A stretch of 52,772 bases of DNA from Planctomycetota bacterium (GCA_039190745.1 JBCCXZ010000022.1:1-52772); one strand, 5' to 3'; positions 5,662 through 40,309 are shown, counted from the stretch's first letter. Program-made: numbers and translations. The notes: generated by a model not told the origin, from the letters alone.

Positions 5662-6186
5662 CTAGGCGGCCCCGAGTCCGGCCATGCGGCGCCAAGCGCT
5701 GAACTGGCCGAGGTGCACCATCATGTGGCCGCCGCCGTAGAAGGCGAGCACCGAGCCCTTGGTCGGGAAGCGGGGGATCATCGCCGCGACGGGGTTCTCT
5801 TCGTCGAGCATGCCGTCGGGCGCCGAACGGAGCGCGGCGATGCCGGCCTCGTAGCCTTTCTTGAAAGCGGCGATGACTTCTTCCATTGGCGGGTAGATCG
5901 TGCCCTCCGGATCGTCCTGGCACTTGGCGTCTTTCGAGAAGACCGCGGCGAAGCCCTCCGGCGCCGCGACCGAGGCGGCGTCGCCGCCGCAGTGGTCGAC
6001 AATCCGCTCTCCGTAGAGCGCGAGGTGGCCCAGGATGAAGGCGGGGTGGTTGGACTCGATGACCTCGCCCCCCGGCGCGGCGAAGCGGGCGAAGCGGTCG
6101 GCGGGCACGCCCTTCAGCAGCGTGTCGGCGTAGTCGACGCAGCGTTGGACGGAGTCGGCGATGTTGTTTCCAAAGGAGCGGGGCAT
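5662..6186 (-). CDS. DinB-superfamily protein
   Basis: NHPAFILGHL and C-terminal H-x-x-x-H-LGQ-x-S-x-WRR-x-x-GL pattern. Confidence 0.75.
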   Translation of the reverse strand: MPRSFGNNIADSVQRCVDYADTLLKGVPADRFARFAAPGGEVIESNHPAFILGHLALYGERIVDHCGGDAASVAAPEGFAAVFSKDAKCQDDPEGTIYPPMEEVIAAFKKGYEAGIAALRSAPDGMLDEENPVAAMIPRFPTKGSVLAFYGGGHMMVHLGQFSAWRRMAGLGAA

Positions 6187-6439
6187 GGGGCGGTCCTCTC
6201 TGCGGGTTGCTAGCGGCGGGGCTCCGCTCATGGTACGCACCGCGCGGTGCGGACGGAAGCGACCACGATTCAAGCCGAAGCGCATGACTTCGGCCAACCG
6301 CGATTCCGGTGCTGGCAAGCTTTAACGGCCGCGGGGCGGCTGCTCAATGTGCGGGGAGTCGCGGTTCGATGGCACGTTGTGGATCGGTCCGCTTGTGCGG
6401 ATTGTGCTTGCAACGCTGTCGCCCTGGCACTGGCCCCGA

Positions 6440-8863
6440 ATGACTCACCCGAAACCAACGCGCCGGCCCGCCAGGTACGCGCCGTGGATGGCGCTCGCGG
6501 TCACGGTCTCGGTTGGGGCGTTAACGGCGTTGCTGGCTGCGCCGTCCGGCGAGCCGGCGACGGCTCGGGCCCGGGTGGTTGAGGTCTCTCAAACGGAGGC
6601 GGTTCCGCAACGGGCGGATCAGATCGAGGCGATGCTCGCCGGCGCCGGCTGCCCGGGGTGGATGGTGCTTGCGGAAGAAGGGGACGAAGCCTTGGGGCCG
6701 CCGACGCACGAAGACTTGGTGCGTCAGGCGTCTGTGGAAGCCGAGGTCCGAATGGCGCTGAAGGCGCGGGCGGTCGCTTCTTCGACGGACGACCCCGACG
6801 ACCTGCTCGGCGGGGAAGAGGACTTGCTGCTAGCGCCGGCAGGCCTGCCCGATGAGCTGGACGGGCCTGCACTCGTGGCGGAACCAGAGGCCGAAATCGA
6901 AACACCACCGGTCGCGGTAGAAGAATCTCCATCGCTGGTCGACGACGACTTGCTTCTCGATGACGACCTGCTGATGGAAGAGGCCCCTGGGCCTGAGCGG
7001 CCGCCGGCGCAGAGCGAAACCGAGCGGCTCTTGGAGCTGCTGCGGGACCGCAGCGACCTCCTCGAAGGGACGCCCCCAACGTCGCCGGCCGTTGCACCGA
7101 GTGAAGCGCCGATTGGAGTGCTGCCTGCGCCGCCGGCGGTCACTCCGATGGCGCCGCATTCGTTGCCCTCGCAGGCCGCTGCGGCTCCGCCCACGAAGCC
7201 GGGCGAGAAGAAGACCTACTGCGAGTTCCTCGCCGACGAGCTGTACCCCTCGGCCGAGACGTGCCGCACCTGCCACGAGAAGATCTACGGCGAGTGGCGG
7301 GTGTCGAGCCACGCCTATGCGTTCATCTCGCCGATGTTCCACAAGTTTGAGCAGACGATCAGCGAGATCTCCCGCGGCACGGTCGGTTACTTCTGCTACC
7401 GGTGCCATTCGCCGGTGGGCACGAGCCTGGGCATCGACCGCACCGCCCCGATGTGGGACATCCCGCCCGTGGCCCGCGAGGGCGTCACCTGCATCGCCTG
7501 CCACCGCGTGAACCACCGCTACGGCAAAGTGAACGGCGAGCGGCGGATCGAGCCGGGCAACCTCTACGCGCCGGTGTACGGCTCGATCGGCGGCGGCGGC
7601 GTCGCGCAGGTCATCGCCAACGCCGACCACTACAAGGTGAAGACCTCGCCCCACCAGAAGGGGCCGGGCCAACCCATCCACATCTGGGGCAAGTACTTCG
7701 ACCAGCTCAGCAAGCCTGAGTTCTGCGTCTCGTGCCACCAGGTGGCGGTGCAGCCGGGCATCAAGCTGGAAGTCGTGTGGGAGCAGTACCGGGCGTCGCC
7801 CGCGTGCAAGAAGGGCGTCTCCTGCCAGGACTGCCACATGGGCCGCATCCCCGGCGTGCCGAGCGGGTACGAGGTCGGCGCGGCGGCCGTCGTGGCGAAG
7901 AAGACCGTCTCGCAGCACCGCAAACACGCCAATCACTTGTTCTACGGGCCGGGGTATTCGATCGCGCACCCGGGCGTGTTCCCGTTCAACCCGGATGCGA
8001 AGCGGTGGTCGATCGACCAGTGGTTGCAGTTCGACTACCGAGCCGGCTGGGGCACCGATGCGTTTGAAGACGCGCTCGCGCGGGGCGAGTTCGTCGCGCA
8101 CTTCCCCCCGGTGTGGGCGAACGTCGACGACCGGTACGACGCCCGCGAGATCCTCGACGACAACCAGAAGGTGCTCGACGCCAAAGACCTCACCCGCCAG
8201 CGGGTGCTGGAGAACGGCTCGCACGTCGACGGGCCGTACTTCGACACGCCGCTGGTGCGGGGCCGCGACCTGCGGCTGCACTACGTGGTGACCAACACCA
8301 ACGAGGGGCACAACCTGCCGACCGGCTCGCTGGGCGCCCAGCCGCAGCTGTGGGCGAACGTCGTGCTGATCGGCCCGCGCGGCAACCGGCTCTGGGAGTC
8401 GGGCTACACCGACCGCTGGGGCGACGTGGCCGACATCCACTCGATCGGCGTGCGGCACAAGCAGGTGCCGTTCGACACGCAGCTGTTCAACTTGCAGACG
8501 ATGTTCCTGATCACGAGCGTGAAGGGCGCCGACCGCGAGTTCCCGCTGCCGGTGAACGTCTCGTTCGACCCCCTGCCCTTCCTGCGGCCGGGGGTGCAGC
8601 CGATCAGCACAATGAACCACCCGCCGTTCATCCGGATGGAGGGGCGTTCGCTGGCGCCGCTCGGCTCACGCCGCGTGCCTTACAAGATCCCCGCGCACCT
8701 GCTCACCGAGCCGGGCTGCTACCGGCTGAGCTTCCGCATGCGGAGCCGGGCCGAGCCTATCTACTTCATGCGGTTCTGCAACGCCACGATGGAGATGCAG
8801 CGGGCGATGAACGAGGGGATTTGTGATTTTCATCAGTCTTCGGTGACGTTCAGGATTGAATAG
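6440..8863 (+). CDS. Pentaheme c-type cytochrome (c554/c552-like) with an acidic low-complexity N-terminal linker and C-terminal beta domain
   Basis: N-terminal signal/TM segment; five CxxCH (CRTCH, CYRCH, CIACH, CVSCH, CQDCH); EW..S.HA.A and GHNLPTG motifs. Confidence 0.88.
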   Translation: MTHPKPTRRPARYAPWMALAVTVSVGALTALLAAPSGEPATARARVVEVSQTEAVPQRADQIEAMLAGAGCPGWMVLAEEGDEALGPPTHEDLVRQASVEAEVRMALKARAVASSTDDPDDLLGGEEDLLLAPAGLPDELDGPALVAEPEAEIETPPVAVEESPSLVDDDLLLDDDLLMEEAPGPERPPAQSETERLLELLRDRSDLLEGTPPTSPAVAPSEAPIGVLPAPPAVTPMAPHSLPSQAAAAPPTKPGEKKTYCEFLADELYPSAETCRTCHEKIYGEWRVSSHAYAFISPMFHKFEQTISEISRGTVGYFCYRCHSPVGTSLGIDRTAPMWDIPPVAREGVTCIACHRVNHRYGKVNGERRIEPGNLYAPVYGSIGGGGVAQVIANADHYKVKTSPHQKGPGQPIHIWGKYFDQLSKPEFCVSCHQVAVQPGIKLEVVWEQYRASPACKKGVSCQDCHMGRIPGVPSGYEVGAAAVVAKKTVSQHRKHANHLFYGPGYSIAHPGVFPFNPDAKRWSIDQWLQFDYRAGWGTDAFEDALARGEFVAHFPPVWANVDDRYDAREILDDNQKVLDAKDLTRQRVLENGSHVDGPYFDTPLVRGRDLRLHYVVTNTNEGHNLPTGSLGAQPQLWANVVLIGPRGNRLWESGYTDRWGDVADIHSIGVRHKQVPFDTQLFNLQTMFLITSVKGADREFPLPVNVSFDPLPFLRPGVQPISTMNHPPFIRMEGRSLAPLGSRRVPYKIPAHLLTEPGCYRLSFRMRSRAEPIYFMRFCNATMEMQRAMNEGICDFHQSSVTFRIE

Positions 8864-8903
8864 TTGTCAGTTGTCAGTTGGCAGTTGTCAGTTGTCAGTT
8901 GTT
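8862..8903. repeat. Heptamer tandem repeat (AGTTGTC)x6
   Basis: agttgtc agttgtc agttggc agttgtc agttgtc agttgtt, starting within the cytochrome stop codon. Confidence 0.9.
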
Positions 8904-8910
8904 GAGGGTT

Positions 8911-8938
8911 GGGGGACAGGAGACAGGGAACGGGGGAC
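8911..8938. repeat. Purine-rich heptamer repeat (RGGRRAC)x4
   Basis: gggggac aggagac agggaac gggggac. Confidence 0.6.
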
Positions 8939-8946
8939 GGGAAATT

Positions 8947-9017
8947 GTAGGAGGCCTCTCTGAGGCCGATTTCGGATTGCGAACAGGAGCGGTATCGGGC
9001 TCGGAGAGCCCTCCTAC
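8947..9017. repeat. REPIN-like doublet family B (GTAG/GTGG-GAGG-CTCTC), copy 1, 71 bp
   Basis: GTAGGAGGCCTCTCTGAGGCCGAT ... ATCGGGCTCGGAGAGCCCTCCTAC. Confidence 0.85.
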
Positions 9018-9034
9018 AGAATGTTTGGTAATGC

Positions 9035-10777
9035 TTGGTGATTGATCGAATTCCAAACGCCGGCTTAAGGCTCTTGGCAGCGCTGCTGCTGGGGGTGACT
9101 GCTGCGCAGGGGACGCGCGCGGCGGAGCCTTTGTTTGAGGGGCCGGTTTGTTTGCCACCGCCTTCGCGGGAGGAGGTTCTTGTGCGGCTGCCGCCGGTGG
9201 GGTCACCCAACTTCGGGCCGAACAGCGTCGGGCCGCCGGCGGCGCCGGGGTACCTGCGGAGCATCACCCGCCACGGCGTCGCGCGGGGGGCGCCGATCCC
9301 TGCGGGCGTGGTGTCGGCGCACGCGCCGCCCTGGGAGCAGCTGCCCGCCCCCTCCGAGCACCCGGGCCAAGTGATGCGCGTCCATCCGCACGGGCACGAC
9401 CCGCGGTCGCACGAGGTGCACTCGTCGACAGGCGACTTCAGCCCCGACCCGTTCTACGAACACTTCGGCTGGGACGCGAACGCCGAGCTACGCATCTACG
9501 GCGGGAAGAAACCGGTCTACAATCCGCGGCCGCTGGTGGAGCTGGGGCTGCCGTTCTACGACCGAGGGCCGATCCCGCCGTCGCGCGACTTCCTGGGGCC
9601 GACCAACCTGGTGCAGCCGAAGCTTTACGTCTACGGCGACTTCCGCACCGCGGTGGCCACGAACCGGTTCAACGGCAACGAGCGGACCGTGTGGGCCAAC
9701 CGGCTGAACCTCGACATCGACTTCGCGGTGACCGCCACCGAACGGTTCCACATGTTCTGGGGGCCGCTCGACGAGCGGAACGTCGATTTTGTCGGCGTGG
9801 TGTTCGACGGCGACGACACCGATTATGTCGACGCCTGGGACGGCTGGGACGAGCGGACCGACGCGCTGTTCTTCGAGGGCGACCTCGGCTACATCGTCGG
9901 CGGGCTCACGGGCATCGAGGCGCCGTACGACCTGCCGTTCACGGTGGGGCTGATCCCGCTGCTCTTCCAGAACGGCATCTGGGTGGAAGACGCTTTCGTG
10001 GGCGCCGCGGCGACGATCCCCGCGCAGAACAGCCCGGGGTGGGACTTCTCGAACTTCGACACGACGGTGTTCATCGGCTTCGACGAGATCACCAACGCCG
10101 GCTTCGGCGGCGAGAACAACGCGGGCAGCATCGTCGGGTTCACGACGTTCATTGAACGCCGCGGCGGGTACATCGAGGCGGGGTACGCGTTCCTGGACGA
10201 CAGCCGGAACCTGGGCCGCTCGCACCACAGCTTCGCGGCCTCCTACACGCGGCGGTACCTAAACCTCGTGTCCAACTCGGTGCGGACGATCGTGAACACC
10301 GGGCAGGACGGCCCCCGCGACGCCCGCTCGGCCGACGGCGTGCTATTCCTCATGGAGAACAGCTTCCTGACGCGGTTGCCGTACAACGTGGTGCCGTACG
10401 CGAACCTTTTCGCCGGCTTCGGCACGCCCCGCCCGGCGGCGCGGCTCACCGGGCCGCTGCGGAACACGGGCATCAACTTCGAGACCGACTTCCTCACCGG
10501 CTACCCTTTCCTCGACGACACGGCGAACGACACCTACGGCGGCGCCGTGGGCATCGACCTGTTGGGTTACGACTACCGGCAGCAGCTGCTGCTGGAGCTG
10601 GCCACGGTGCAGGTGATGAGCGGCTCGGCCGTGGCCGGCGACCAGTACGCCTTCGGCGTGCGGTACCAGAAGGCGCTCAACAACGCCTGGCTGGTGCGGG
10701 CCGACGCGATGCACGGCTGGCTGGAGAACGCCGACGACATCTTCGGCGGGCGGGTGGAGCTGCGGCGGAAGTTCTAG
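9035..10777 (+). CDS. Putative outer-membrane beta-barrel (porin-like) protein
   Basis: Signal peptide, Pro-rich N-terminal region, aromatic/Gly-rich alternating beta segments, C-terminal ...GGRVELRRKF with terminal Phe; follows the pentaheme gene. Start codon uncertain (TTG 9035 or GTG 9038). Confidence 0.65.
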   Translation: MVIDRIPNAGLRLLAALLLGVTAAQGTRAAEPLFEGPVCLPPPSREEVLVRLPPVGSPNFGPNSVGPPAAPGYLRSITRHGVARGAPIPAGVVSAHAPPWEQLPAPSEHPGQVMRVHPHGHDPRSHEVHSSTGDFSPDPFYEHFGWDANAELRIYGGKKPVYNPRPLVELGLPFYDRGPIPPSRDFLGPTNLVQPKLYVYGDFRTAVATNRFNGNERTVWANRLNLDIDFAVTATERFHMFWGPLDERNVDFVGVVFDGDDTDYVDAWDGWDERTDALFFEGDLGYIVGGLTGIEAPYDLPFTVGLIPLLFQNGIWVEDAFVGAAATIPAQNSPGWDFSNFDTTVFIGFDEITNAGFGGENNAGSIVGFTTFIERRGGYIEAGYAFLDDSRNLGRSHHSFAASYTRRYLNLVSNSVRTIVNTGQDGPRDARSADGVLFLMENSFLTRLPYNVVPYANLFAGFGTPRPAARLTGPLRNTGINFETDFLTGYPFLDDTANDTYGGAVGIDLLGYDYRQQLLLELATVQVMSGSAVAGDQYAFGVRYQKALNNAWLVRADAMHGWLENADDIFGGRVELRRKF

Positions 10778-10787
10778 CAGAGTGGGT

Positions 10788-10861
10788 GTAGGATGGGTGC
10801 TCGCACCCATCAATGTCTAGCCATTCGTAATGCAATCGATGGGTGCGAGCACCCATCCTAC
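10788..10861. repeat. REPIN family C (GTAG-type), copy 1, 74 bp
   Basis: GTAGGATGGGTGCTCGCACCCATC, 26-nt spacer, GATGGGTGCGAGCACCCATCCTAC. Confidence 0.9.
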
Positions 10862-10875
10862 GCAACTAAAGAGGT

Positions 10876-11379
10876 GTGATCGTGGCCGAATGGGAAACAA
10901 TGACTAAGCTGTTCGACCTAACCCGGAAGATGGCGGCGGAGATGGCGGAAGGGATTCCATCCGAGCAGTTCGACGTTGCCAGCGGCGGGGCGAACAGCCC
11001 GAAGTGGATTGTGGGGCACCTCGCGCTCGGCATGGACTTCGGACTCATGCTGTTGGGCACGCCAACCGAGGAGCTTGAGGCCATGATGCCCACATACGGC
11101 CCCGGCAGTGCTGGGGGCTCGGTGGGAGACGACGGGCGTTCGCAAAGCGACTTGATTGCTCACCTGCGGACGACCGGCGACGCTTTGAGAACCAAAGTCC
11201 TTGAAGCCGATAGCCAGACATTCATGCAGAAGCAGCAGACGCCGTTCTTGGTCGATGAGTTGCCAACCGTTGGGGACCTGCTCGGCCATGTGTATACCAC
11301 TCACATTGCCCTGCACATGGGGCAGCTTTCTCAGATACGCCGTGAACTTGGCTTGCCGAGTTGGTACCAGGTAGCGTGA
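10876..11379 (+). CDS. DinB-superfamily protein
   Basis: NSPKWIVGHL and H-IAL-H-MGQLS-x-x-RR-x-LGLP; AAAGAGG just upstream; exact start uncertain. Confidence 0.75.
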   Translation: MIVAEWETMTKLFDLTRKMAAEMAEGIPSEQFDVASGGANSPKWIVGHLALGMDFGLMLLGTPTEELEAMMPTYGPGSAGGSVGDDGRSQSDLIAHLRTTGDALRTKVLEADSQTFMQKQQTPFLVDELPTVGDLLGHVYTTHIALHMGQLSQIRRELGLPSWYQVA

Positions 11380-11416
11380 CGCGGGGACGCGGAACGCGCT
11401 GGGATTCAGTTAGCTA

Positions 11417-11442
11417 GCAGGATGTGGCTCGCACTCATCCTA
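11417..11442. repeat. Degenerate single family C REP between convergent genes
   Basis: gcAGGATGtggcTCGCACtCATCCTA resembles the family C arm. Confidence 0.55.
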
Positions 11443-11448
11443 TCCTAA

Positions 11449-11898
11449 CTACTTTTCTGAATGTTTAGCGAGCACCTGAGAGCTCAGGACGAAAGACTTG
11501 TTCGTTACTACGATCTTTCCATCCTTGACGTAGTACGCCAGCTCTCTACGTTCCAAGGCGAGGCCCAGTGCCGTGCAGAGTCTGATCTTTTGGTCAATCT
11601 CTATGGTCATGGGCTCAGCAAGTGCGGCTTGCGTATTCGCTACCTTGCGTTCATCGAAGATGACAGTGGACCTTGCCTGTCTGGCAAGACTGGACAGCAA
11701 ATCCCTGAGGGGGAGTTCAGTGCAGTTCATGTCGACTTCTGCCAGAAAATGTGGAGACCGATACTTCGCGGGCACGGTATCCATGAACGACGAATGAACA
11801 TCCAGAACACGGCCTGGCATGTCCGTCGCTTTGGGCGGTGCGTCGTAGGTGACCACCGCTAAGGCGACGCTGAGGCATGTGAGAACTTGGGCGTTCAT
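11449..11898 (-). CDS. Small secreted hypothetical protein with an STN-like (secretin/TonB N-terminal) domain
   Basis: Signal peptide MNAQVLTCLSVALAVV; PLRDLLSSLARQ...IFDE...PMTIEI...LCTALGLALERRELAYYVKDGKIVVT pattern. Confidence 0.55.
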   Translation of the reverse strand: MNAQVLTCLSVALAVVTYDAPPKATDMPGRVLDVHSSFMDTVPAKYRSPHFLAEVDMNCTELPLRDLLSSLARQARSTVIFDERKVANTQAALAEPMTIEIDQKIRLCTALGLALERRELAYYVKDGKIVVTNKSFVLSSQVLAKHSEK

Positions 11899-11977
11899 CC
11901 GAGTCACTCCCGATGGGTTGGTTGACACTCCGCGACAGGATGCGGCACTGTACTGGACGTCTCGGCAGCATCCAACA

Positions 11978-12051
11978 GTAGGATGGGTGCTCGCACCCAT
12001 CGATTGCCATACGACCAATGCAACAATGATGGGTGCAAGCACCCATCCTAC
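11978..12051. repeat. REPIN family C, copy 2, 74 bp
   Basis: GTAGGATGGGTGCTCGCACCCATC, 26-nt spacer, GATGGGTGCAAGCACCCATCCTAC; its end supplies the TAG stop of the decaheme gene. Confidence 0.9.
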
Positions 12052-13997
12052 CGCTCCCGCTCAACGCTCCAACTCACATGATAGTTGTGGCACTTCTGAC
12101 AACTATCACCCGCGGCTTGCGGGGTGTGACAGGAGGCGCAGAGGTTCTTCTCGACCGGCAGGAAGCCCGGGGTGAACTGGTGCGGGTCGTGGCCGGTGTA
12201 GCTGGCGGAGACGCTCGCCGCGGCGTCGACCGTGTGGCAGGCGGAGCAGTCGGCCAGCAGCGGCTGCAGGACGTGCGGGCGGTGGGAGAACTTGGTGAAC
12301 GGCTTGCCGGCTCGGCCGGTGGAGGCTTGCCAGTGGATGTGCCAACGGCCGTCGGCCCGCTGGTCGAGACTGTGGCAGCTGCCGCATTGGCCGGGGGCGG
12401 TGGGGGCCATCGCTTCGACCAAGAGCGGCCCGACCAGGTGGCCGAGTTCGCCGCTGGCGGCTTCGGCGGCGAGGTCGAGCCACGCGGCGAGCCAGGCGGC
12501 GTCGTGCCCCGCGGGGTGGTAGCGGAGCACGGCGAGCGTGTTGTCCCACACCCAGCCGCCGACGGGCTTGGTTTCGGCGGGTGAATCGGTTGGCGGTTCG
12601 TCCCGCAAGGCGGCGACGAGCTGGCCGACCGTCGCGGGCGAGAGTCCGGCGGCTAAGCGGTTCACCTCTTCAGGAGAAAGCTCACGCCCCACGAGCCGCT
12701 CCGCGGAGGCACCGATGGCGGCTTGGCCGTCAGCGGCGATGGCGTCGACCAGGCGTTGGATGCCGCACGCCACAGCGGCGGCCGCAGCGACGTCGTCGCG
12801 GTCGTCGGGGTCGACGTCGAAGAAATCGAACCGCGGGCCGAGTTGGTCGATCGCCTCGCACGGGTCGGGGTCGGCCAGGAGCAGCAGCTTGGCGGGCATG
12901 GGGAGCATGCCGTCGAAGTCGCCGTCGAGCGACTCGGGCCAGCCGGGCAGGTCGTGACCGCCCTTCTCGATCTGCACTGTGTCGAGCATCGGCAGCGACA
13001 ACAGCGGCACGCCCCCGGCGAGCGAAGCGCCCAGCGATTCATCGTGGCACGAAGCGCACGCGGTTTGGTAGCCAAGGGTCCGTTGCGCGCCGGTCGTCGG
13101 GTCGAGCTCGTGGCAGCTCGCACAGGTAAAATCGGTCTTCCGCTCGGGGTGGTGCTTCAGCTGGTGCGAGGCGTGGTCGAAGGCGATGCCGGTCCGCCGG
13201 CGGTGCGGCCAATCGGTGAACTCGGGGTGGTCGCCGGCGAAGCTGTGGTACCGCTCCTGATGGCAGGCCTGGCAGCTCTGGTTGGACATCAGCGACAGGT
13301 CGTGGCCCGCGCCGTGGTGCTCGCGGTGGCACGCGGAGCAGGCGAGCGGCTCGCGGGGGTCGAACCGGCGGCCGCTGGAGGAAGTGGCTCCGGCCAGGAG
13401 CACCTCGGGGTCCATGCTGTGCGGCCCGGTCGCGACCGGCGGCGGGATGTCTTCGCCGTGGCAGTTCAAGCAGAGCGTGGTCTGGGTCTTCTCCGAAGGG
13501 CCGCTGCTCACCAGCGACGCGGCCCACTGGAGCGTGCCGTCGTCGGCTGCGGGGTGGCAGGTGGCGCAGCTCGCGGTGGGCGCGAGCCCATCGACGATCT
13601 GCGCGTGGTGCGTCGAGAGCGGCCCGGGTTTGAGCACGGCGTTCCGCTGCTCGCTGCTGAGCAGCATGAGCGCAGCGCCTGTGGCGGCGAGCAGCACGAC
13701 GGTGGCGATGCGGCCGCGGACGGTGCGCATCGTGCGGACCGGGCTGCACCGCAGGACGTGCGTGCATGCGCCGTCCGGTTCGGGCCCCTCAGGGCACGGG
13801 CCGCCGCGTTCGGGCGAGCGGTTGCAGCGCCAGCGGTCGCCGTCGCGCACCGGCCGGCAGAGGGCCAGCTTCGGGCAGCTGCCGCCCGCGGCGGGGCCGG
13901 TCGGGCACGGCTGGCCGGTGTCGGTCTGACCGCAGACCCACGGCTGGTTCGGCCGCTCGTAGGCGTCGCCCTGCTGCTCTTGAAGGCGCTCTCTCAC
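12048..13997 (-). CDS. Membrane-anchored decaheme c-type cytochrome (cytochrome c3-like) with a Cys-rich N-terminal domain
   Basis: GTG start overlaps the upstream TGA (GTGA); ten CxxCH (CATCH, CLNCH, CSACH, CQACH, CASCH, CASCH, CGSCH, CSACH, CASCH, CQKCH); FDHASH and FSHRPH axial-ligand motifs; one TM helix after an 8-Cys region. Confidence 0.88.
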   Translation of the reverse strand: MRERLQEQQGDAYERPNQPWVCGQTDTGQPCPTGPAAGGSCPKLALCRPVRDGDRWRCNRSPERGGPCPEGPEPDGACTHVLRCSPVRTMRTVRGRIATVVLLAATGAALMLLSSEQRNAVLKPGPLSTHHAQIVDGLAPTASCATCHPAADDGTLQWAASLVSSGPSEKTQTTLCLNCHGEDIPPPVATGPHSMDPEVLLAGATSSSGRRFDPREPLACSACHREHHGAGHDLSLMSNQSCQACHQERYHSFAGDHPEFTDWPHRRRTGIAFDHASHQLKHHPERKTDFTCASCHELDPTTGAQRTLGYQTACASCHDESLGASLAGGVPLLSLPMLDTVQIEKGGHDLPGWPESLDGDFDGMLPMPAKLLLLADPDPCEAIDQLGPRFDFFDVDPDDRDDVAAAAAVACGIQRLVDAIAADGQAAIGASAERLVGRELSPEEVNRLAAGLSPATVGQLVAALRDEPPTDSPAETKPVGGWVWDNTLAVLRYHPAGHDAAWLAAWLDLAAEAASGELGHLVGPLLVEAMAPTAPGQCGSCHSLDQRADGRWHIHWQASTGRAGKPFTKFSHRPHVLQPLLADCSACHTVDAAASVSASYTGHDPHQFTPGFLPVEKNLCASCHTPQAAGDSCQKCHNYHVSWSVERER

Positions 13998-14821
13998 GGC
14001 AGCCCCCCGCTGAACGCGTGGGCAACCAGACCGTGAATAACCGCCAGGATCAGCAGCGGGTAGGTGAGCGCGATGTGCACGAACAACCACGCCTTCAGCC
14101 GCCATTGCAGCGCCGCGTGGTAGTCGAGGTCGTCCCGCTTGCGGACGAGCGCGAACAGCTCTTCGCCGGCGGACTGCTCGGCGTCGGAGAGGAACCGGCT
14201 GGCCTCGGTGAGGTCGGCCATCAGCGCGCGGCGGCGGCGGTTGGTCGGCCACAAGAAGTAGCCCCACTCGCGGGGCTGCTCGAAGTACGCGGCGAGGTGC
14301 TTCGAGTAGACGCCGGCCAGGGTCGTCGAGCCGGTCGCGGCGATCGTGCTGAGCACCGCTTCCTCGGCCAGCTCGCGGACCTGGTTGCGCAGCGCAGGGA
14401 TGCGTTCGTAGATTACCTCTTCGCCAACGCGGGCGAGCTTGAGAGGCAGCGTGCGCGTCCAGTACAGCCCCAGCACGCCGCTCGCTGCGGTGGCGGCGAA
14501 CAGCGCGGCGAGCGTGCCCTCGAGCCAACCGTCCGGCCAACAGAGCCCCGTGTGCATCAGGAACACGGCGACCGAGCCTAGGCCCGTGTAGACGTGCAGC
14601 TGCATCCACCACCGCGAGGCGCCAAGCGGGGCGGCCGCGAAGCGTTTGCGTGTGTTGTAGAGCGCGAGCAACACGAGCGCCCCAAGCAGGACGTAGCCGG
14701 TGAAGAACGACGAATCGCCCAGAGAGCGGTCGACGCGGAGCCGCTCGGCGTAGACCGCGCCCAGCACCGTGGCGAGCGTCGCGGCGCCCTTGAGTCGCTT
14801 GGTGGTTAGGAAGCCGGGCAT
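13994..14821 (-). CDS. Integral membrane protein with four TM histidines (cytochrome b / ferric-reductase-TM-like)
   Basis: Several hydrophobic helices; WMQLHVYTG, FLMHTG, WLFVHIALT, AVIHG; TGATG coupling to the upstream gene. Confidence 0.65.
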   Translation of the reverse strand: MPGFLTTKRLKGAATLATVLGAVYAERLRVDRSLGDSSFFTGYVLLGALVLLALYNTRKRFAAAPLGASRWWMQLHVYTGLGSVAVFLMHTGLCWPDGWLEGTLAALFAATAASGVLGLYWTRTLPLKLARVGEEVIYERIPALRNQVRELAEEAVLSTIAATGSTTLAGVYSKHLAAYFEQPREWGYFLWPTNRRRRALMADLTEASRFLSDAEQSAGEELFALVRKRDDLDYHAALQWRLKAWLFVHIALTYPLLILAVIHGLVAHAFSGGLP

Positions 14822-16548
14822 CACGACGCCCCCAGCCGGCCGAGTTCGCCGACGTTGCCCAGGTCGATCCGCACGAGTGCGTCGTGCGGGCAGGCGTGGA
14901 CACACGCCGGGCCCGTCGGCAGGCCGACGCACAGGTCGCACTTGGTCGCCTTGAGCAGCGGGAGCATGCTCTCTTCGTCCACCGCGGTGGCACCGTGGAC
15001 GTCGCGGACCTCGACCATGCGGATGTTGTCGTACGGGCAGCTCGACGCGCAGACGCCGCAGCCGATGCAGGTGGGGTCGTTGATCTGCACGACGCCGCTA
15101 CCGAGGTCGCGGCCAATGGCGCCGGTGGGGCAGCCGATCATGCACACCGGGTCGACACAGTGCATACAGGCGTGGGTCACCAGGTGGTTGCCGTGCCGGG
15201 TGCCGTGGCGGAGGAAGCGAGGGTTGCCGTCGTGGGCTGTGGCGCAGGCCCTTACGCAATCGTCGCAGCGGGTGCAGCGGTCCAGATCGATGGCCATCGC
15301 CTGCCGGCCGTTGATGAGCCGCTCTTCCACGACAAACTCGAGCAAACCGCCCTGCCCCGCCGAGTCGGGCAGCCCCTGGTCGTCGGCGGCGTGCTCGACG
15401 CGGTGCTGCTTAGCGAGCTCCGTCAGGCGCTCGGGCGGCAGGCGGGGGAAGACGTGCTCCTCGAGCACCGACTGTCGGATGCGGAGCACGTCGACGTACC
15501 CGATCGCGCGGAGCGATTGCCGGTAGTCGCACGGGCGGCCTTCGCGAGAAGCTTGCAGTGCTTCGGCGAGCCCGAACACGCGGCCCTTGCCGAGGTACTT
15601 GACCGTGCGGTGGCCGCTGCCGAAGCGGTGGCTCTGCCGGGCGAAGCCGGAGCGGACGAGCACCACGCCGTCGGCGGGCGTTTCTTCTTCGGCGATCACC
15701 GGCTCGGCGGCGATCAGTTCGGGGCCCTTGGCGCCCACGGGGTGGTCGGCGTTCCAGTCGAAGCGGCCGAAAGACTCGAACTCCGCCGCATCGGCGACCG
15801 CGTCGAGGCTCTCCCGTGGTAGGCCTGCAAAGAGCGGCGTCTCTTGCAGGTGCAGCGCGAGGTCGTTCTGACGGTAGAGCCGTTCCACGGTTTCTTGGAG
15901 CGCGGGGCTGTACCGCATCAGGTCGCGCAGACCCTGCCAGCGCAGCTCCAAGAGCGACGCCGGGCCTTGAGCCAGCACCGTGCACGGCCGCTGGCTCCGC
16001 GTCAGCGCCGAGTACTCGCCGAACAACTCGCCGGCGTGCATCTGGGCGGTCCGTGTGCCGGCGAGCACCCGCGGGATGTCTTGCAGGAACACGTGCGGCG
16101 GGGCGTCCACGGCGCCCGGCTCGGGCCGGAGGTTGGCCATACGTCCCGGCTGGTCGCGGAGCTCGGGGAGCCGCGTGCGGCGGAAACCCTGTGCGATTGT
16201 CTTCCACCAGCTCGGGGGCGTTTCGGGCGGCTTGCCGAAGGCCTCGGCGGGGAGGCTGTCGACCACCACGCGGACCGTTCCAGAGAGGATCAGGAAAGCG
16301 CTGTGGCCGTAGTCGCCCTCGCGGACGACGACGTCGCCGTCGGCGTAGCGGACCACGCGGGTGTCGCTCTTGAGGATGCCTTCGAGCGGCAGCGCGGCGG
16401 GGAAGGCGCCGGCGTCCATCGAAGCGAAGGGCTCGGCGCCGAGCAGCTTCTCGACGTCCACGGCGCGCATCCGGCTGTCGAACGGCACGTCCCACCGCTG
16501 GGGGCGCTGGACGGCGACTTCGAGACCAGGCGTGGCGGGCGTGCTCAT
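14821..16548 (-). CDS. Tandem cyclic-nucleotide-binding domains fused to a 4x[4Fe-4S] (DmsB/NrfC-type) ferredoxin domain
   Basis: VVREGDYGHSAFLILSGTV...GELFGEYSALTRSQR; second CNB IAEEETPADGVVLVRSG...LGKGRVFG; Cys groups CTRCDDCVRAC, CMHCVDPVCMIGCP, CIGCGVCASSCP, CDLC...PACVHACP. Confidence 0.9.
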   Translation of the reverse strand: MSTPATPGLEVAVQRPQRWDVPFDSRMRAVDVEKLLGAEPFASMDAGAFPAALPLEGILKSDTRVVRYADGDVVVREGDYGHSAFLILSGTVRVVVDSLPAEAFGKPPETPPSWWKTIAQGFRRTRLPELRDQPGRMANLRPEPGAVDAPPHVFLQDIPRVLAGTRTAQMHAGELFGEYSALTRSQRPCTVLAQGPASLLELRWQGLRDLMRYSPALQETVERLYRQNDLALHLQETPLFAGLPRESLDAVADAAEFESFGRFDWNADHPVGAKGPELIAAEPVIAEEETPADGVVLVRSGFARQSHRFGSGHRTVKYLGKGRVFGLAEALQASREGRPCDYRQSLRAIGYVDVLRIRQSVLEEHVFPRLPPERLTELAKQHRVEHAADDQGLPDSAGQGGLLEFVVEERLINGRQAMAIDLDRCTRCDDCVRACATAHDGNPRFLRHGTRHGNHLVTHACMHCVDPVCMIGCPTGAIGRDLGSGVVQINDPTCIGCGVCASSCPYDNIRMVEVRDVHGATAVDEESMLPLLKATKCDLCVGLPTGPACVHACPHDALVRIDLGNVGELGRLGAS

Positions 16549-16587
16549 GCGGCTGTGTTTGGGAAACCGTGTTCTCGTCTGGCCCGC

Positions 16588-17586
16588 TTACTTGTATTCG
16601 GTCGGCTTCGGCAGCACGGCGTCGATCGCGGCGAGATCGGCGCCGTCGGCCGTTTCGGCGAAGTTGCTCGCGGCGCGGCCGATCAGGTCGGCGGCGGCGT
16701 TGAGCGAGCGGCCTTGGTTGAGCTTGAGCGGCACGCTGAGCGCGGCCTCGTGGGCGGCGTCGATGTCTGGGTTGTCGAGCAGTTGCTGCAGCGCGTGGAG
16801 GCGCTTCTTCAGCCGCGCCGCGCGGCGGGCCGAGGCGACGCCGAACGTGGCCTTCTCGGTCGCTTTCGCCGTGGCGCGGAAGCTGGCCTCCAAATCGGCC
16901 AGCAGGCCGACGACGTACATCTTGCGGAGCCGCTCGGGGCTGCTGGGTTGGTTCACGTCTGCCCCAGAGCGGAGGAAGTTGTGCCGCACGCGGCCCTGCG
17001 ACCAGGCGACCAGCTCGAAGTCGTCGCTGCCGGCGGGGTGTCCGCCCCGGTTGACCAGCTCCTCCTCAGGCGTGGTGTGGCACGCCAGGCACTGCCGGGC
17101 GATGAGGTAGAGGTTCGCCGGGTTGTTCATGCCCGCGGCGACGCTGTCGACGATGCGCTGGCGGCGGTGCTCTTCGCTCTCGCTCTCCTTTGTGGCGTTG
17201 GGGCCGCCGTAGTCGTGGTGCAGCGTGAGCCAGTCTTTGGCCCCGCCGTGGCACGACTCGCACGAGACGCCGGAGATCACCCGCACCCGGCCGTTGTCCG
17301 CTTCGCGGCGGGTGTAGTGGCACTTCACGCAGGTGTCGTTGCGTTTGACGCTGCGGAAGCCGAGCTTCTCGGCGATCGCTTTGGCTTCCGGCGAGCGGTG
17401 CAGCGCCTCGAAGGTTTGCGCGTGGGGCGTGGCCTTCCAGGTGGCGATCTCGGGGTCGTGGCATTTGGCGCACGACTCGACGCCGAGGACGTTCGCTGGG
17501 TCGCAGCGGATATCGACCGTTGCGTCGTCCTGCTGGGCCGCGGCGGGGGGTGTTCCAAACGTTACAAGGGCTGCGGCAATGACCAT
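16588..17586 (-). CDS. Tetraheme c-type cytochrome (c554-like)
   Basis: Signal peptide; CAKCH, CVKCH, CESCH, CLACH; W..T.HA motif. The start could lie further upstream (frame is open to 17718). Confidence 0.87.
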   Translation of the reverse strand: MVIAAALVTFGTPPAAAQQDDATVDIRCDPANVLGVESCAKCHDPEIATWKATPHAQTFEALHRSPEAKAIAEKLGFRSVKRNDTCVKCHYTRREADNGRVRVISGVSCESCHGGAKDWLTLHHDYGGPNATKESESEEHRRQRIVDSVAAGMNNPANLYLIARQCLACHTTPEEELVNRGGHPAGSDDFELVAWSQGRVRHNFLRSGADVNQPSSPERLRKMYVVGLLADLEASFRATAKATEKATFGVASARRAARLKKRLHALQQLLDNPDIDAAHEAALSVPLKLNQGRSLNAAADLIGRAASNFAETADGADLAAIDAVLPKPTEYK

Positions 17587-17605
17587 GTATAAGCGCAGCG
17601 ATTCT

Positions 17606-17676
17606 GTAGGAGGCCTCTCCGAGGCCGATTTCGGTCTCCATTGGAACATGGAATCGGCCTCAGAGAGGTCTCCCAC
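17606..17676. repeat. REPIN-like family B, copy 2, 71 bp
   Basis: GTAGGAGGCCTCTCCGAGGCCGATT ... AATCGGCCTCAGAGAGGTCTCCCAC. Confidence 0.85.
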
Positions 17677-17737
17677 AGTTATGTACCGGGCTGTCACCTG
17701 AGTTGGCAGCGCTGTCAATGCAGAGGACTCCTCAGGT

Positions 17738-18985
17738 TTAGGCTTCGAGCACCACGTCGCCCGCGGGCACGCCGACGCAGGCGAGGCACTCGCGGTCGCC
17801 CAGCGGGACGCCGGGGGGTTTCACGTGCTGGATGTCGCCCTCGGCGACCGATACCGCGCACTGGCCGCAGCTCCCGGCGCGGCAGCCGAAGCGGAGCGGC
17901 ACGCCGTTCTGCTCGGCCAGCTCCAGGAGCGAGCCCTGGGCTCCGTTCCAGCTGGCAGTCTTGCCCGAGCTTTGGAACTCGACGCGGTACTCACGCTCGA
18001 TGTCTGCGACGGTACGCACCGCGTCGACGCTCGCCGGGCCGAAGGCCTCGTAGCGGATATCCTCGGTGGGGACGCCCCACTCCAGCAGCCCGGGGACGAT
18101 GGCGTGCATCATCGCCGGCGGGCCGCACAGGTAGAATCGGAAGTTGTTCGACGGCAGCACCTCGCGCAACCGCTGCAGGCTGACGTGGCCGCGGTGCCGG
18201 TAGTCGCGGCCGAGCTTGTCGGCCGGAGCGGGCCGCGAGTAGCTCGTGTCGACCATCGGCAGGCCGTCGGCCTCGAGCCGGGCGAACTCCGCGCGGAAGG
18301 GGTGGTGCATGCTATTGCGGAAGCCGGCGAAGAAGCAGCTGCCGGCGTGGCGTTCGGGGCGCAGGGATTGGGCCATGCTCACCAGCGGCGTCACGCCGAT
18401 GCCGGCGCCGACGAGCACCACCGGGCCGGTCTCGCCGGGGTCGAGGAAGAACCCGCCCTGGGGGGCTTGGCACTCGAGTTTGTCCCCGACGGCGACGCGC
18501 GTGTGTAGGAACGTGCTGGCGACGCCCGGCCCTTCTGCGCCGCAGGCGGAGGCGTCGATCCGTTTGACCGTGATCCGGTAGTGCGGCCCGGCGGGCTTCT
18601 GCGAGAGCGAGTAGCAGCGCACGAGGGGCGGCTCGTCGGGCGAGGGCTGCACCCGGATCGAGAGGTACTGCCCCGGCTCGAAGCGGGCGGGCGGCCGGCC
18701 GTCGGTCGGCTTGAGCAGCAGCGAGCGGCAGTCGGGCGTCTCGTCGTGGAGGCCCACAACCTCCAATTGCTTCCAGCCCTCCCAGGCGCGGAGCGAGGAC
18801 TGCGAAGCACGGGCCCGCTGGAGCGTCGACCGCACGCGGCTGCGGAAGGCTTGCCGCTTCTCGGCGGCGACGAGCCGGCGGCGGACGGCCGCGCGGGCCG
18901 ATCCCCACGCCAGCGTGCCGGCGAGCCAGGCGGCGGCCACGAGCAGGGCGGCGCCGATCAGTATGCCTACGATCCGACCGTCCAA
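17738..18985 (-). CDS. Membrane-anchored FAD/NAD(P)-binding oxidoreductase with a C-terminal [2Fe-2S] ferredoxin (FNR/PaaE-like)
   Basis: N-terminal TM helix; RCYSLS, GVAST, GAGIGVTP, FYLCGP, EAFG; CRAGSCGQC...CLAC. Confidence 0.9.
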   Translation of the reverse strand: MDGRIVGILIGAALLVAAAWLAGTLAWGSARAAVRRRLVAAEKRQAFRSRVRSTLQRARASQSSLRAWEGWKQLEVVGLHDETPDCRSLLLKPTDGRPPARFEPGQYLSIRVQPSPDEPPLVRCYSLSQKPAGPHYRITVKRIDASACGAEGPGVASTFLHTRVAVGDKLECQAPQGGFFLDPGETGPVVLVGAGIGVTPLVSMAQSLRPERHAGSCFFAGFRNSMHHPFRAEFARLEADGLPMVDTSYSRPAPADKLGRDYRHRGHVSLQRLREVLPSNNFRFYLCGPPAMMHAIVPGLLEWGVPTEDIRYEAFGPASVDAVRTVADIEREYRVEFQSSGKTASWNGAQGSLLELAEQNGVPLRFGCRAGSCGQCAVSVAEGDIQHVKPPGVPLGDRECLACVGVPAGDVVLEA

Positions 18986-39937: not shown

Positions 39938-40309
39938 CTGGAAGCTCCTTCTGTTACTGCCACGCGAAACCCGGGTCCGTACGGGAGTCGGCAAAGGCAC
40001 TTGTCTCATGCGAACGGAGGGCCCAGAGGGTGGGGAAGCCGTGCCCCCCGTCGCGAGGTAATCCGTCCGCCTCGCTGTCATGTATCGACCCTGTCACGAA
40101 GAACGGTCGAGCCGCTCAACGGCAAAAGCGGGGTAAAGCACGGCGGCCCGGCCCCTTTTTGAGAAAGTGTGCCGGTTGTAAGAGTGCTGCACCCGGGTCC
40201 CCGAGGGTACAAGCCAAGGCAGAGGATGGGCACTTGTGACGAACCCGCCTGCTAGGCAAACCAGGCAAAGATTAACGCGCCTCCGCGGCTCCAAGACCCG
40301 CCGCGGGGG

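Follow-up and report, generated by a model that had tools for sequence, protein, structure and literature searches.

The window is a 52,772-nucleotide stretch from a Planctomycetota bacterium (GCA_039190745.1, JBCCXZ010000022.1), and it carries seven redox or envelope genes in two convergent units. The plus-strand unit encodes an exported pentaheme c cytochrome with a C-terminal Ig-like domain (ptdA, 6440..8863) and an outer-membrane beta-barrel (ptdB, 9035..10777). The minus-strand unit encodes a FAD/NAD(P)/[2Fe-2S] reductase with an N-terminal membrane anchor (ptdC, 17738..18985), a periplasmic tetraheme cytochrome (ptdD, 16588..17586), a cytoplasmic protein with two cyclic-nucleotide-binding (CNB) domains and putative [4Fe-4S] sites (ptdE, 14821..16548), a putative di-heme cytochrome b (ptdF, 13994..14821), and an inner-membrane-anchored decaheme c cytochrome (ptdG, 12048..13997). 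All seven ORFs described in the first-pass annotation are present, as are its CxxCH counts (19 c-heme motifs in total, 5+10+4) and the TGATG and GTGA gene overlaps, which can be read directly in the window. The converging units are separated by two unrelated short ORFs: one encodes a DinB protein, and the other, of 197 amino acids, is doubtful.

From their encoded parts, these genes are ptdABCDEFG, here divided between two convergent units, ptdAB and ptdCDEFG. The ptd operon was named by Elbon, Stewart and Glass, who did not test its function, and was reported from Alpha- and Gammaproteobacteria, Nitrospirales, and Planctomycetes (bioRxiv 10.1101/2023.11.21.568154). As they describe it, ptdA to ptdD encode a pentaheme cytochrome that has a beta-sandwich at its C terminus (and is related to T. 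tepidum c552), a porin, an FAD/NAD(P) oxidoreductase, and a tetraheme cytochrome; ptdE to ptdG encode a CNB and Fe-S protein, a ferric-reductase-like membrane protein, and a decaheme cytochrome (bioRxiv 10.1101/2023.11.21.568154). Each part has its counterpart in the window: PtdA matches in heme number, beta-sandwich and c552 homology, PtdB is a porin encoded beside ptdA, and PtdC, PtdD, PtdE, PtdF, and PtdG are each of the expected type. We based the assignment on domain content, gene order, the common homologue 5ZE8, and the loci of marine Rhodospirillaceae MAGs, where PtdA identity is 53–57%. The earlier statement that this combination matches no described system was not borne out, as the operon already has a name.

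The two units had been read as one system, and both single operons elsewhere and co-occurrence across related genomes support this. The complete seven-gene cluster was found at 20 of 47 GTDB loci and at 9 of 20 further Planctomycetota loci that we fetched, and 16 of these clusters (10 GTDB and 6 Planctomycetota) lie on one strand. Single operons were seen in Alphaproteobacteria, one Gammaproteobacterium, and other Planctomycetota, and in loci L119–L122 and L134 the order on the one strand is A-B-C-D-E-F-G. Among 24 genomes of the family, 18 have close orthologues of PtdA and PtdB; a close PtdE is present in 17 of those 18, and the other six lack one. Family genomes hold both halves even where these are 25–190 kb apart. 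The gene for PtdA adjoins that for PtdB in 44 of 47 loci, and the remaining three are contigs under 3.5 kb. PtdF is present in 22 of the 25 genomes that we checked behind ptd loci, most of which were picked since their locus missed part of the set. In one locus (L054), PtdE and PtdF form one ORF; in another (L037), a 21-kb locus in which no ptdC was seen, PtdE carries a fused Pyr_redox_2 flavoprotein domain (E = 3.5e-26), in favor of NAD(P)H as the electron source.

PtdC contains FAD_binding_6, NAD_binding_1, and Fer2 domains, and its best NCBIfam match, which falls short of the cut-off, is to the reductase portion of flavohemoprotein (E = 1e-62). It has a hydrophobic helix at residues 5–23, and the N-terminal helix reaches a hydropathy of at least 1.6 in 19 of 22 aligned sequences. 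For ptdD, which has four CxxCH motifs, the start is most likely the ATG at 17586, because a REP-like palindrome fills 17604–17678. PtdD is similar to cytochrome c554 (1BVB; E = 2e-7, or 1.3e-14 with a profile). Three additional histidines are invariant in 22 of 22 PtdD sequences and a fourth is present in 21, so PtdD is likely to be a carrier whose hemes are all bis-His.

PtdE has matches to cNMP_binding (E = 7e-23) and to Fer4 families, and its Fe-S part is HycB/HydN-like (the best PDB matches of the orthologue from locus L043 are HycB3/HycB4, E = 6.5e-17). Because all 16 Fe-S cysteines are kept in every one of the 22 aligned sequences, PtdE should have four [4Fe-4S] sites. The four Fe-S sites and two CNB domains described at first pass are thus found, but a nucleotide pocket is apparent in the first CNB domain alone: its G, E, and R are kept in 22 of 22 sequences, while the second domain has neither the GE pair nor the Arg. 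In the phosphate-binding cassette of the first domain (15976..16023, minus strand), the flanks have drifted in this genus. R is followed by T or S in 14 of the 22 sequences and by P in the window and a sister genome, and the window has QRPC for PRTA.

Cyclic-nucleotide control, also proposed earlier, gains independent support from cyclase genes at other ptd loci. Of 14 family genomes that could be scored, 6 have a gene for a guanylyl-type class III cyclase beside ptdC and divergent from it; these six cases may be one event because the genomes are kin. A class III cyclase gene is also divergent from ptdC in loci L018, L020, L043, and L051, and unrelated cyclase architectures adjoin the operon in L049, L050 (CHASE2), and L127 (FHA). 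The family cyclase has 2W01 (E = 1e-28) as its best PDB match. Its residue pair is Asp/Gly; the corresponding pair is Lys/Asp-or-Thr in adenylyl cyclases and Glu/Gly in the guanylyl cyclase Cya2. The nucleotide is not cGMP universally, since the cyclases of L050 and L127 are Lys-type and that of L049 has Trp at the site. No cyclase gene lies beside ptdC in the window, the sister genome, or 8 of the 14 scorable family genomes; a more distant one of the Asp/Gly type (32–44% identity) is all that the window's genome encodes, on a different contig. Near co-directional proteobacterial ptd loci, a match to the cyclase catalytic domain was found in 2 of 10 cases. Cyclases are common in Alphaproteobacteria. 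Several ptd loci are adjoined by cyclase, FHA, PP2C, and Ser/Thr kinase genes.

Ferric-reductase-like di-heme cytochromes b have two transmembrane His pairs with 13–14 residues between partners. PtdF, first noted as a four-histidine membrane protein, does have four histidines that are invariant in 24 of 24 sequences, and they form two pairs at a fitting spacing (H76/H90 and H249/H263, 14 residues apart), which suggests that it is a cytochrome of this kind. It has no sequence match in Pfam, NCBIfam, or the PDB (none at E < 1), eight of its homologues were likewise without a Pfam match, and hydropathy gives just two helices at a threshold of 1.6. PtdG has ten CxxCH motifs, with 11 further histidines invariant in 24 of 24 sequences. 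Its N terminus (13746..13934, minus strand) is a predicted cytoplasmic domain outside any Pfam family, with eight cysteines in two repeats of C-x8/9-C-x-x-GP-x4-C-x5-C, and is followed by an Arg-rich stretch and then a transmembrane helix (residues 97–115 by hydropathy). The eight cysteines are kept in 23 of 24 aligned sequences (the other is truncated), and the motif occurs 54 times among the collected, partly redundant loci. The domain could possibly be a metal or Fe-S site. Decaheme variants in L037 and L130 have an FHA-like N terminus in its place.

PtdB had been called a beta-barrel ending in Phe. The AlphaFold2 model (pLDDT 85.9) agrees, with 18 membrane strands as counted from DSSP elements; the window's protein ends in ELRRKF, and a C-terminal Phe is present in 120 of the 120 homologues listed. 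PtdB falls in the OprD/Occ-AlgE structural class: its best match is OccK3/OpdO by Foldseek (E = 3.6e-11) and OpdQ by VIA (Z = 26.6, rmsd 3.0, 322 aligned). There are 2461 homologues at E ≤ 0.001, and none of the 120 listed has a Pfam family; PtdB itself has no Pfam or NCBIfam match, and no Pfam family, OprD included, at E ≤ 0.05. The structural matches listed include Occ, AlgE, and MOMP channels, and no MtrB-type barrel is among them, a result still compatible with kinship to MtrB. By its likeness to substrate channels, PtdB is more likely to let in a small substrate than to be the sheath of a wire.

PtdA has five CxxCH motifs and a match to PF13435. A further in-frame ATG lies at 6347, and a long acidic low-complexity linker precedes the conserved core, which begins at about 7196. 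The predicted model (pLDDT 80.5, built without hemes) has a sole Foldseek match at E ≤ 0.001, to 5ZE8 (E = 1.5e-10). Alignment with an ExtKL/MccSep-family pair gave an HHalign probability of 99.3 (E = 4e-20). Membership in the MccSep/ExtKL family itself (NF040886) was rejected, at 26.3 bits against a cut-off of 250. In the polysulfide reductase MccSep, the active site is heme 2, and hemes 1, 3, 4, and 5 are bis-His (bioRxiv 10.1101/2025.11.18.688581). The second CxxCH of PtdA (7394..7408, plus strand) corresponds to this catalytic position. Across 33 PtdA sequences, 22 of them from divergent or newly fetched loci, just four non-motif histidines are invariant for five hemes, compared with 11 for the ten hemes of PtdG and four for the four of PtdD. 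The predicted distal pocket is K190-L191-E192 (7763..7771, plus strand; numbered from 7196), in which L191 aligns with C239, the heme-2 ligand of MccSep. Position 190 is K in 18 and R in 15 of the 33 sequences, 191 is L in 26, V in six, and S in one, and 192 is E in 27 and H in six. U325 of MccSep aligns with the GSLG/GFxAE loop of PtdA (PTGSLG or PTGFxA); ptdA in the window has no in-frame TGA, and the aligned PtdA sequences have no conserved non-motif Cys. The missing ligand probably leaves heme 2 open, as the predicted catalytic heme. Among 42 closer sequences, the invariant histidines further include H258 and H475, and 41 have H415, so a fifth His ligand is possible in that clade; the loop bearing H475 has a pLDDT below 50. 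Residue 192 (Glu or His) could itself ligate the iron. The first-pass annotation had stated that no catalytic subunit is adjacent, which fails if PtdA, an enzyme scaffold, has the open heme 2 that it probably does.

Reading gene content, motifs, conservation, linkage, and predicted folds together, we infer cofactor binding, the order and direction of electron transfer, gating, catalysis, and a substrate as follows. We put at about even the chance that ptd is a reductase gated by cyclic nucleotides, taking electrons from NAD(P)H to the periplasm, with PtdA as the catalytic end. NAD(P)H would reduce the FAD and [2Fe-2S] of membrane-anchored PtdC, which would pass electrons to the four [4Fe-4S] of PtdE, where binding of cGMP or cAMP by the first CNB domain would switch the flow. 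From PtdE, electrons would go, possibly through the 8-Cys site at the cytoplasmic end of PtdG, to two b hemes in PtdF and on to the ten His/His hemes of PtdG. The tetraheme carrier PtdD would then deliver them to hemes 1, 3, and 4 of PtdA and last to heme 2, where a small substrate that enters through the PtdB barrel would be reduced. The parts fit the path from cytoplasmic NAD(P)H through Fe-S and membrane hemes to periplasmic hemes that was originally suggested. Outward electron flow costs NAD(P)H as well as membrane potential, and this cost would explain a gate. If this mechanism holds, we tentatively favor a small oxidised nitrogen species or a similar oxyanion as the substrate, and would still expect to be wrong more often than right. 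Against a nitrogen substrate, in the window's genome (95% complete) no NirK, Nor/Nod-type heme-copper protein, or Nar/Nap was found, and no nitrogen-cycle gene recurred among the 34 flanking proteins scanned (of 144 listed).

We consider it rather unlikely, with perhaps half the weight of that mechanism, that ptd serves extracellular electron transfer (to Fe(III), Mn(IV), humics, or partner cells) as a porin-cytochrome conduit, with PtdA docked in or on PtdB and passing electrons out. This was the first suggestion of Elbon et al. (bioRxiv 10.1101/2023.11.21.568154), and a resemblance between the pentaheme fold and AvECN, an archaeal nanowire, has been described (PMC11976967). The adjacency of ptdA and ptdB, the 19 hemes, and the reported high transcription of ptdAB in an oxygen-deficient zone all favor a conduit, and a long conserved PtdA loop, poorly predicted alone, might enter the barrel. 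However, the MtrB barrel has 26 strands and PtdB has 18 and is Occ/AlgE/MOMP-like, although smaller barrels occur in some conduits. Also, the hemes of MccSep-type proteins are arranged as a branched Y within a globular cap rather than as a rod (bioRxiv 10.1101/2025.11.18.688581), PtdG is bound to the inner membrane, and the neighbours in the loci listed include no conserved gene for an extra surface multiheme or lipoprotein cytochrome. So of the trans-envelope conduit first proposed, the barrel stands and the parts fit the path to periplasmic hemes, while the outer-membrane step is weakened because the barrel is substrate-channel-like and no extra surface multiheme gene is a conserved neighbour in the loci listed.

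It is improbable that ptd is a redox sensor or signalling relay, in which the heme chain would inform PtdE of the redox state in the periplasm or outside, with little net flux, and the CNB domains and the cyclase, FHA, PP2C, and kinase neighbours would form a circuit. The FHA-like decaheme variants and the mostly aerobic carriers (heme-copper oxidases in 39 of 40 genomes) would suit such a relay, but CNB domains receive nucleotides, a domain search found no recognised output domain in PtdE, and a dedicated NAD(P)H reductase and the reported ptdAB transcription fit flux. Slightly less probable still is inward flow, in which PtdA would oxidise a small reduced substrate entering through PtdB, for example a sulfur or nitrogen compound, and pass electrons to quinone or, uphill, to NAD(P)+. 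In its favor, the closest structure, 5ZE8, comes from a sulfur phototroph and is a cytochrome of low potential for which a sulfur role was suggested (PMC11976967), and carriers in oxygen-deficient zones are reported to transcribe sulfur oxidation genes. Against it, flow to NAD(P)+ requires very low-potential donors or energy input, PtdC is from reductase families that oxidise NAD(P)H, and PtdA has no conserved non-heme Cys of the kind used by sulfur-handling cytochromes of this type.

The gated reductase that we favor resembles several known systems in part. MccSep/ExtKL of Geobacter sulfurreducens shares with PtdA the pentaheme and Ig-like scaffold, four His partners, and a porin gene in the cluster, and Geobacter has a comparable pair in the porin ExtI and the pentaheme enzyme ExtKL (PMC5877670). 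Unlike MccSep/ExtKL, PtdA has L, V, or S in place of the heme-2 Cys ligand in 33 of 33 sequences, no Sec or Cys in the Ig-domain loop, a core about 130–170 residues longer, and different partner genes. The T. tepidum c552 structure (5ZE8) shares the fold (TM 0.66 for the target length) at 14% identity in the structural alignment, matches in sequence at E = 1e-8, and has Cys where PtdA has Glu192. The match of PtdD to Nitrosomonas cytochrome c554 spans all four heme motifs, but PtdD scores 39 bits against a cut-off of 400, has the four conserved extra histidines (one heme of cytochrome c554 is five-coordinate) and carries a helical extension at its C terminus, and no HAO gene adjoins ptdD. OprD/Occ channels share the 18-strand monomeric barrel fold with PtdB, at 8–14% identity in structural alignments and with no Pfam OprD match. 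MtrAB conduits also pair a multiheme gene with a barrel gene and include a decaheme, but the ptd barrel adjoins a globular pentaheme, PtdG is anchored in the inner membrane and scores 18 bits against the cut-off of 192 for TIGR03508 (DmsE/MtrA), and the electrons apparently come from NAD(P)H via Fe-S rather than from quinol via CymA, the source for MtrAB.

Fre-MsrQ-MsrP and NOX/FRD combine a flavin reductase, a di-heme ferric-reductase-type membrane protein, and a periplasmic enzyme. Like ptd, they have a flavoenzyme for NAD(P)H in the cytoplasm, two pairs of histidines spaced by about 14 residues, and an acceptor in the periplasm; PtdF differs in having no detectable sequence match to these families, and ptd adds the 4x[4Fe-4S] CNB adaptor and 19 c hemes and has no molybdenum enzyme. 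The operon of Elbon et al. has the same seven parts as the window, where they are split into two units. They give PtdE two [4Fe-4S], compared with the four indicated here by 16 invariant cysteines, and their main text makes no mention of cyclase, cGMP, or cysteine (bioRxiv 10.1101/2023.11.21.568154). Relative to that main text, four points are new: the link to cyclases, the 8-Cys domain of PtdG, the class of the barrel, and the argument on heme 2.

All seven redox and envelope genes that the first-pass annotation reported in the window were confirmed as described. CxxCH heme motifs number 5 in the pentaheme protein PtdA (6440-8863, plus strand), 10 in the decaheme protein PtdG (13997-12048, minus strand), and 4 in the tetraheme protein PtdD (17586-16588, minus strand). 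A TGATG overlap joins the gene for PtdE (16548-14821, minus strand), which has cyclic-nucleotide-binding (CNB) domains and Fe-S clusters, to that for the membrane protein PtdF (14821-13994, minus strand), and a GTGA overlap joins the latter to the decaheme gene. In Pfam and NCBIfam, PtdE matches cNMP_binding and Fer4 families, the reductase PtdC (18985-17738, minus strand) matches FAD/NAD/Fer2 families, and the penta- and tetraheme proteins match c554-type families. Neither resource has a match for PtdF or for PtdB (9035-10777, plus strand), and no full-length NCBIfam equivalog reached its cut-off for any of the seven. The reading of PtdB as a beta-barrel held up, in that 18 membrane strands were counted in its structure model (pLDDT 85.9). 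For window 9400-16500, no RNA holder was listed.

The combination had been described as matching no characterised complex. It is indeed not characterised, but it is already named: Elbon, Stewart and Glass (2024; bioRxiv 10.1101/2023.11.21.568154) described ptdABCDEFG, with exactly these seven parts, from uncultured bacteria of oxygen-deficient zones (ODZs). In that preprint, ptdAB are highly transcribed in nod-bearing ODZ Alphaproteobacteria, iron reduction or nitrogen cycling is suggested, and the function is called “completely unknown.” Our literature search for follow-ups on ptd found only this paper, and its supplements may already list Lacipirellulaceae or the split arrangement seen here. 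What is new here is a set of mechanistic leads.

Scanning GTDB genomes with the barrel as the query gave 47 loci, from Planctomycetota, Alpha- and Gammaproteobacteria, Myxococcota, Verrucomicrobia, Nitrospirota, Elusimicrobia, and Acidobacteriota. The pentaheme gene adjoins the barrel gene in 44 of these. The plus- and minus-strand units do co-occur in other genomes, with all seven genes inside the fetched stretch at 20 of the 47 loci, and 10 of those 20 have the one-strand order D-E-F-G-A-B-C (nine alphaproteobacterial and one gammaproteobacterial by title). PtdA was found at E ≤ 1e-60 in 31 of 301 Planctomycetota genomes; among 20 loci fetched around such matches, nine have all seven genes and five are ordered A-B-C-D-E-F-G. 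Of 24 genomes from the host family, 18 have close orthologues of both PtdA and PtdB, and a close PtdE is present in 17 of these 18 and in none of the other 6 (these co-occurrence counts are descriptive, as kin genomes are not independent). The two units lie 25-190 kb apart in four family genomes, yet both are present, and PtdF was found in 22 of 25 genomes behind loci. Overall, ptd is one conserved system, real and spread across phyla. The barrel at another Lacipirellulaceae locus (L011) is 97% identical to the window's, and the cultured Lacipirellula limnantheis I41 (locus L043) has all seven genes and an adjacent cyclase gene. This family, in which ptd is common, includes cultured members, though ptd was named from uncultured ODZ bacteria.

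Variant systems, in which ptdAB adjoins CNB/Fe-S and membrane protein genes, were seen at L130:9091-18677, L137:444-12005, L054:60-11425, L037:8103-19291, and L027:1256-11392; they differ in having cytochromes with 11, 15 or 17 hemes, FHA domains, an octaheme or a doubled tetraheme, or PtdE fused to a flavoprotein. Three genomes (L086-L088; G012, G017, and G033) have a divergent ptdAB-like pair, about 30% identical and with extra cysteines, and no other ptd genes near it. In one Rhodospirillaceae MAG (L026:12751-14121), ptdC is directly followed by genes for a truncated globin and for another FAD/NAD/[2Fe-2S] reductase, an arrangement seen at none of the other loci scanned. In the window, DinB-superfamily genes (5662-6318, minus strand, and 10876-11379, plus strand) flank ptdAB; the sole locus sharing them is from a sister genome, and they are probably unrelated. 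We rejected these genes and a 197-aa ORF as members of the system, since just 1 of the 47 loci has them next to ptd. GTAG-type REP-like palindrome pairs lie between ptd genes (8946-9018, 10788-10861, 11978-12051, and 17604-17678) and are of two sequence types, two copies each.

Among the cytoplasmic and inner-membrane parts, the N-terminal hydrophobic helix of PtdC is present in 19 of 22 sequences. All 16 Fe-S cysteines of PtdE are invariant (22 of 22 sequences), pointing to four clusters; in the L. limnantheis orthologue, the Fe-S portion is nearest to HycB-type wire subunits. At L037, a locus in which we saw no ptdC, a pyridine-nucleotide flavoprotein domain is part of PtdE itself; at L054, PtdE and PtdF are fused. 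These fusions support a direct path from NAD(P)H through PtdE to PtdF. PtdF, for which we found no family match, has two invariant His pairs with a spacing of 14 residues and may be a cytochrome b. For its 10 hemes, PtdG keeps 11 invariant His outside the heme motifs, and PtdD has four conserved ones for four. An ammonia-oxidiser module of the HAO/c554 type was rejected because there is no HAO neighbour and PtdD has four His partners. At the N terminus of PtdG, two copies of a four-Cys motif (the 8-Cys domain) are followed by an Arg-rich stretch and a membrane anchor, an order that predicts a cytoplasmic location for this domain. It has no Pfam family and is absent from the divergent forms at L027, L037, and L054; among 12 candidate shorter proteins, four matched it (58-68% identical), and these look like PtdG fragments. 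(Alignments left out partial, frameshifted, fused, or very divergent rows: 3 of 44 for PtdA, 4 of 26 for PtdD, 1 of 23 for PtdF, 5 of 28 for PtdG, 6 of 27 for PtdE, and 2 of 23 for PtdC.) Upstream of ptdC, window 19096-20349 (minus strand) encodes a 417-aa protein with an N-terminal TM helix and no Pfam family; 10 of 16 family loci have a homologue upstream of ptdC, and a cyclase gene often separates the two.

The proposal that cyclic nucleotides control the system stands in part. In all 22 sequences, the phosphate-binding cassette of PtdE's first CNB domain has its G, E, and R intact, and cyclase genes adjoin the operon in other genomes, but the second CNB domain lacks these residues and no cyclase gene lies beside ptdC in the window. 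We fetched 16 family genomes; two were cut by contig ends, and a class III cyclase gene is divergent from ptdC in 6 of the 14 scorable ones, as it is at L018, L020, L043, and L051. This cyclase, whose best PDB match is Cya2 (2W01), reads Asp and Gly at the two positions that set base specificity. These are Lys and Asp in adenylyl cyclases (with Thr for Asp in the bacterial examples aligned) and Glu and Gly in Cya2, a guanylyl cyclase (PMC5995499, PMC4215837). Other cyclases lie beside the operon at L049, L050, and L127, and two of them are Lys-type. The Asp/Gly cyclase of the window's genome lies elsewhere and is a more distant relative; because of this, the missing neighbour, and the drifted flanks of the pocket, this genus may have looser gating. 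We rejected this genome's contig C82 cyclase as an orthologue of the ptdC neighbour, as it fits the weaker of two score groups (E ≤ 2e-91 versus ≥ 2e-78, a split chosen after the scores were seen). The stronger group is found in 8 of 18 ptdA-bearing family genomes and none of 6 others. Separately, 12 kb from ptdC, window 31165-33819 (minus strand) encodes an 884-aa protein in which a degenerate cyclase-like domain is fused to a Ser/Thr kinase and a weak Cache domain. Within the literature collection searched, no paper brought together five or more of the six topics cGMP, CNB domains, ferredoxin, guanylate cyclase, multiheme cytochrome, and electron transfer.

PtdA looks like an enzyme, judging from its sequence and model. 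The model (pLDDT 80.5) has a single significant fold match, the Thermochromatium tepidum pentaheme 5ZE8. In the MccSep/ExtKL polysulfide reductases, hemes 1, 3, 4, and 5 are bis-His and heme 2 is His/Cys-ligated and catalytic together with the selenocysteine of an Ig-like domain (bioRxiv 10.1101/2025.11.18.688581). PtdA aligned with a member of this family above the cut-off (L139, 444 bits; its Cys and Sec mapped to MccSep C239 and U325) and a weaker relative at an HHalign probability of 99.3 (E = 4e-20). C239 aligns with L191 of PtdA (counting from window 7196). All 33 PtdA sequences have L, V, or S at this position, with K/R190 and E/H192 as neighbours; only four non-motif His (39, 162, 247, and 372) are invariant in these sequences. 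Given these four His, the C239 alignment, and the full counts in PtdG and PtdD, the one heme of 19 with no evident His partner is at the fold's catalytic position. Counting against an open heme 2, H258 and H475 are also invariant among 42 closer sequences, and Glu or His at 192 could be an iron ligand. A polysulfide reductase of the MccSep type was rejected, as the heme-2 Cys and the Sec are both lost.

A long acidic, Pro-rich linker (window 6540-7190) precedes the PtdA core and could tether it across a wider periplasm; PtdA ORFs are about 800-1000 aa in close Lacipirellulaceae-type loci versus 570-630 aa in most proteobacterial loci. One Planctomycetota family has tandem duplicates of ptdA (L120:7104-11209 and L121:8373-12772) and His at position 192 (6 of 6 sequences). 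MccSep/ExtKL-family selenoprotein genes with in-frame TGA were found in 2 of 301 Planctomycetota genomes (L139:1418-2557 and L140:1501-2565).

The host context points to no substrate. Of two heme-copper oxidase subunits encoded in the window's genome (95% complete), one scores as A-type and the other belongs to a cbb3 cluster; the genome also encodes a single FdhF/YdeP-type molybdopterin protein, whereas no NirK was found in it, nor was a link to denitrification or Nod seen. Lacipirellula parvula is a fermenting micro-aerobe, and low-oxygen habitats commonly harbour its family (PMC6995999). Considering expression in the ODZ together with the enzyme scaffold, nitrogen oxides are the favoured candidate substrate, though less likely than not to be the right one. 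Two further 8-heme proteins (625 and 1533 aa; contig C1, about 129960-131836, and contig C38) have no full-length family assignment.

PtdB looks like a substrate channel in its model, and fold likeness alone shows no function. Foldseek ranked OccK3/OpdO, OccK11, Campylobacter MOMP, chitoporin, and AlgE at the top, and exhaustive comparison placed OpdQ first (Z = 26.6, rmsd 3.0, 322 residues), then MOMP, OccAB, and AlgE. MtrB is not among the fold matches listed, which does not exclude kinship. In an Atlas search, 29 of 30 matches were unnamed clusters and one had Alginate_exp on 31% of its members. The amphipathic-strand count (24 segments, reached by 79 of 500 shuffles) is not significant and was not used as evidence. 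A BBP2-family porin gene (window 38666-40081, minus strand; E = 3e-59) is unrelated to ptdB by Pfam.

The electron path first proposed, from NAD(P)H out to the outer membrane, is supported in part; a periplasmic reductase that has a channel of its own is more likely than the outward-conduit step. We tentatively propose, as a reading that is unlikely to hold in full, that Ptd is a widespread seven-protein, messenger-opened, quinone-independent NAD(P)H-to-periplasm reductase with a new catalytic c heme, its own channel, and a new 8-Cys bridge. A second messenger (cGMP in Lacipirellulaceae) would bind the iron-sulfur electron-transfer subunit directly and open a route by which electrons from NAD(P)H cross the inner membrane independently of quinone, with the 8-Cys cofactor domain linking the cytoplasmic to the membrane parts. 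The route would end at a catalytic c heme of a new type, with a His ligand and a Lys/Arg plus Glu pocket, which would reduce a small nitrogen oxide or oxyanion that enters by the system's channel. If true, this would be direct cyclic-nucleotide control of bacterial electron flow and a missing enzyme of nitrogen or metalloid cycling in low-oxygen waters. The analysis narrows the open function to the catalytic heme, the gating nucleotide, and the barrel's cargo, and ptdAB needs a test before it is used as a marker for extracellular electron transfer. In Geobacter, the porin ExtI lies beside a pentaheme enzyme, and its loss decreases reduction of both selenite and tellurite but not of Fe(III) citrate (PMC5877670). 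A porin gene adjoining a pentaheme-protein gene is common to the ExtI cluster and ptdAB, and one pentaheme scaffold is common to PtdA, 5ZE8, and MccSep/ExtKL.
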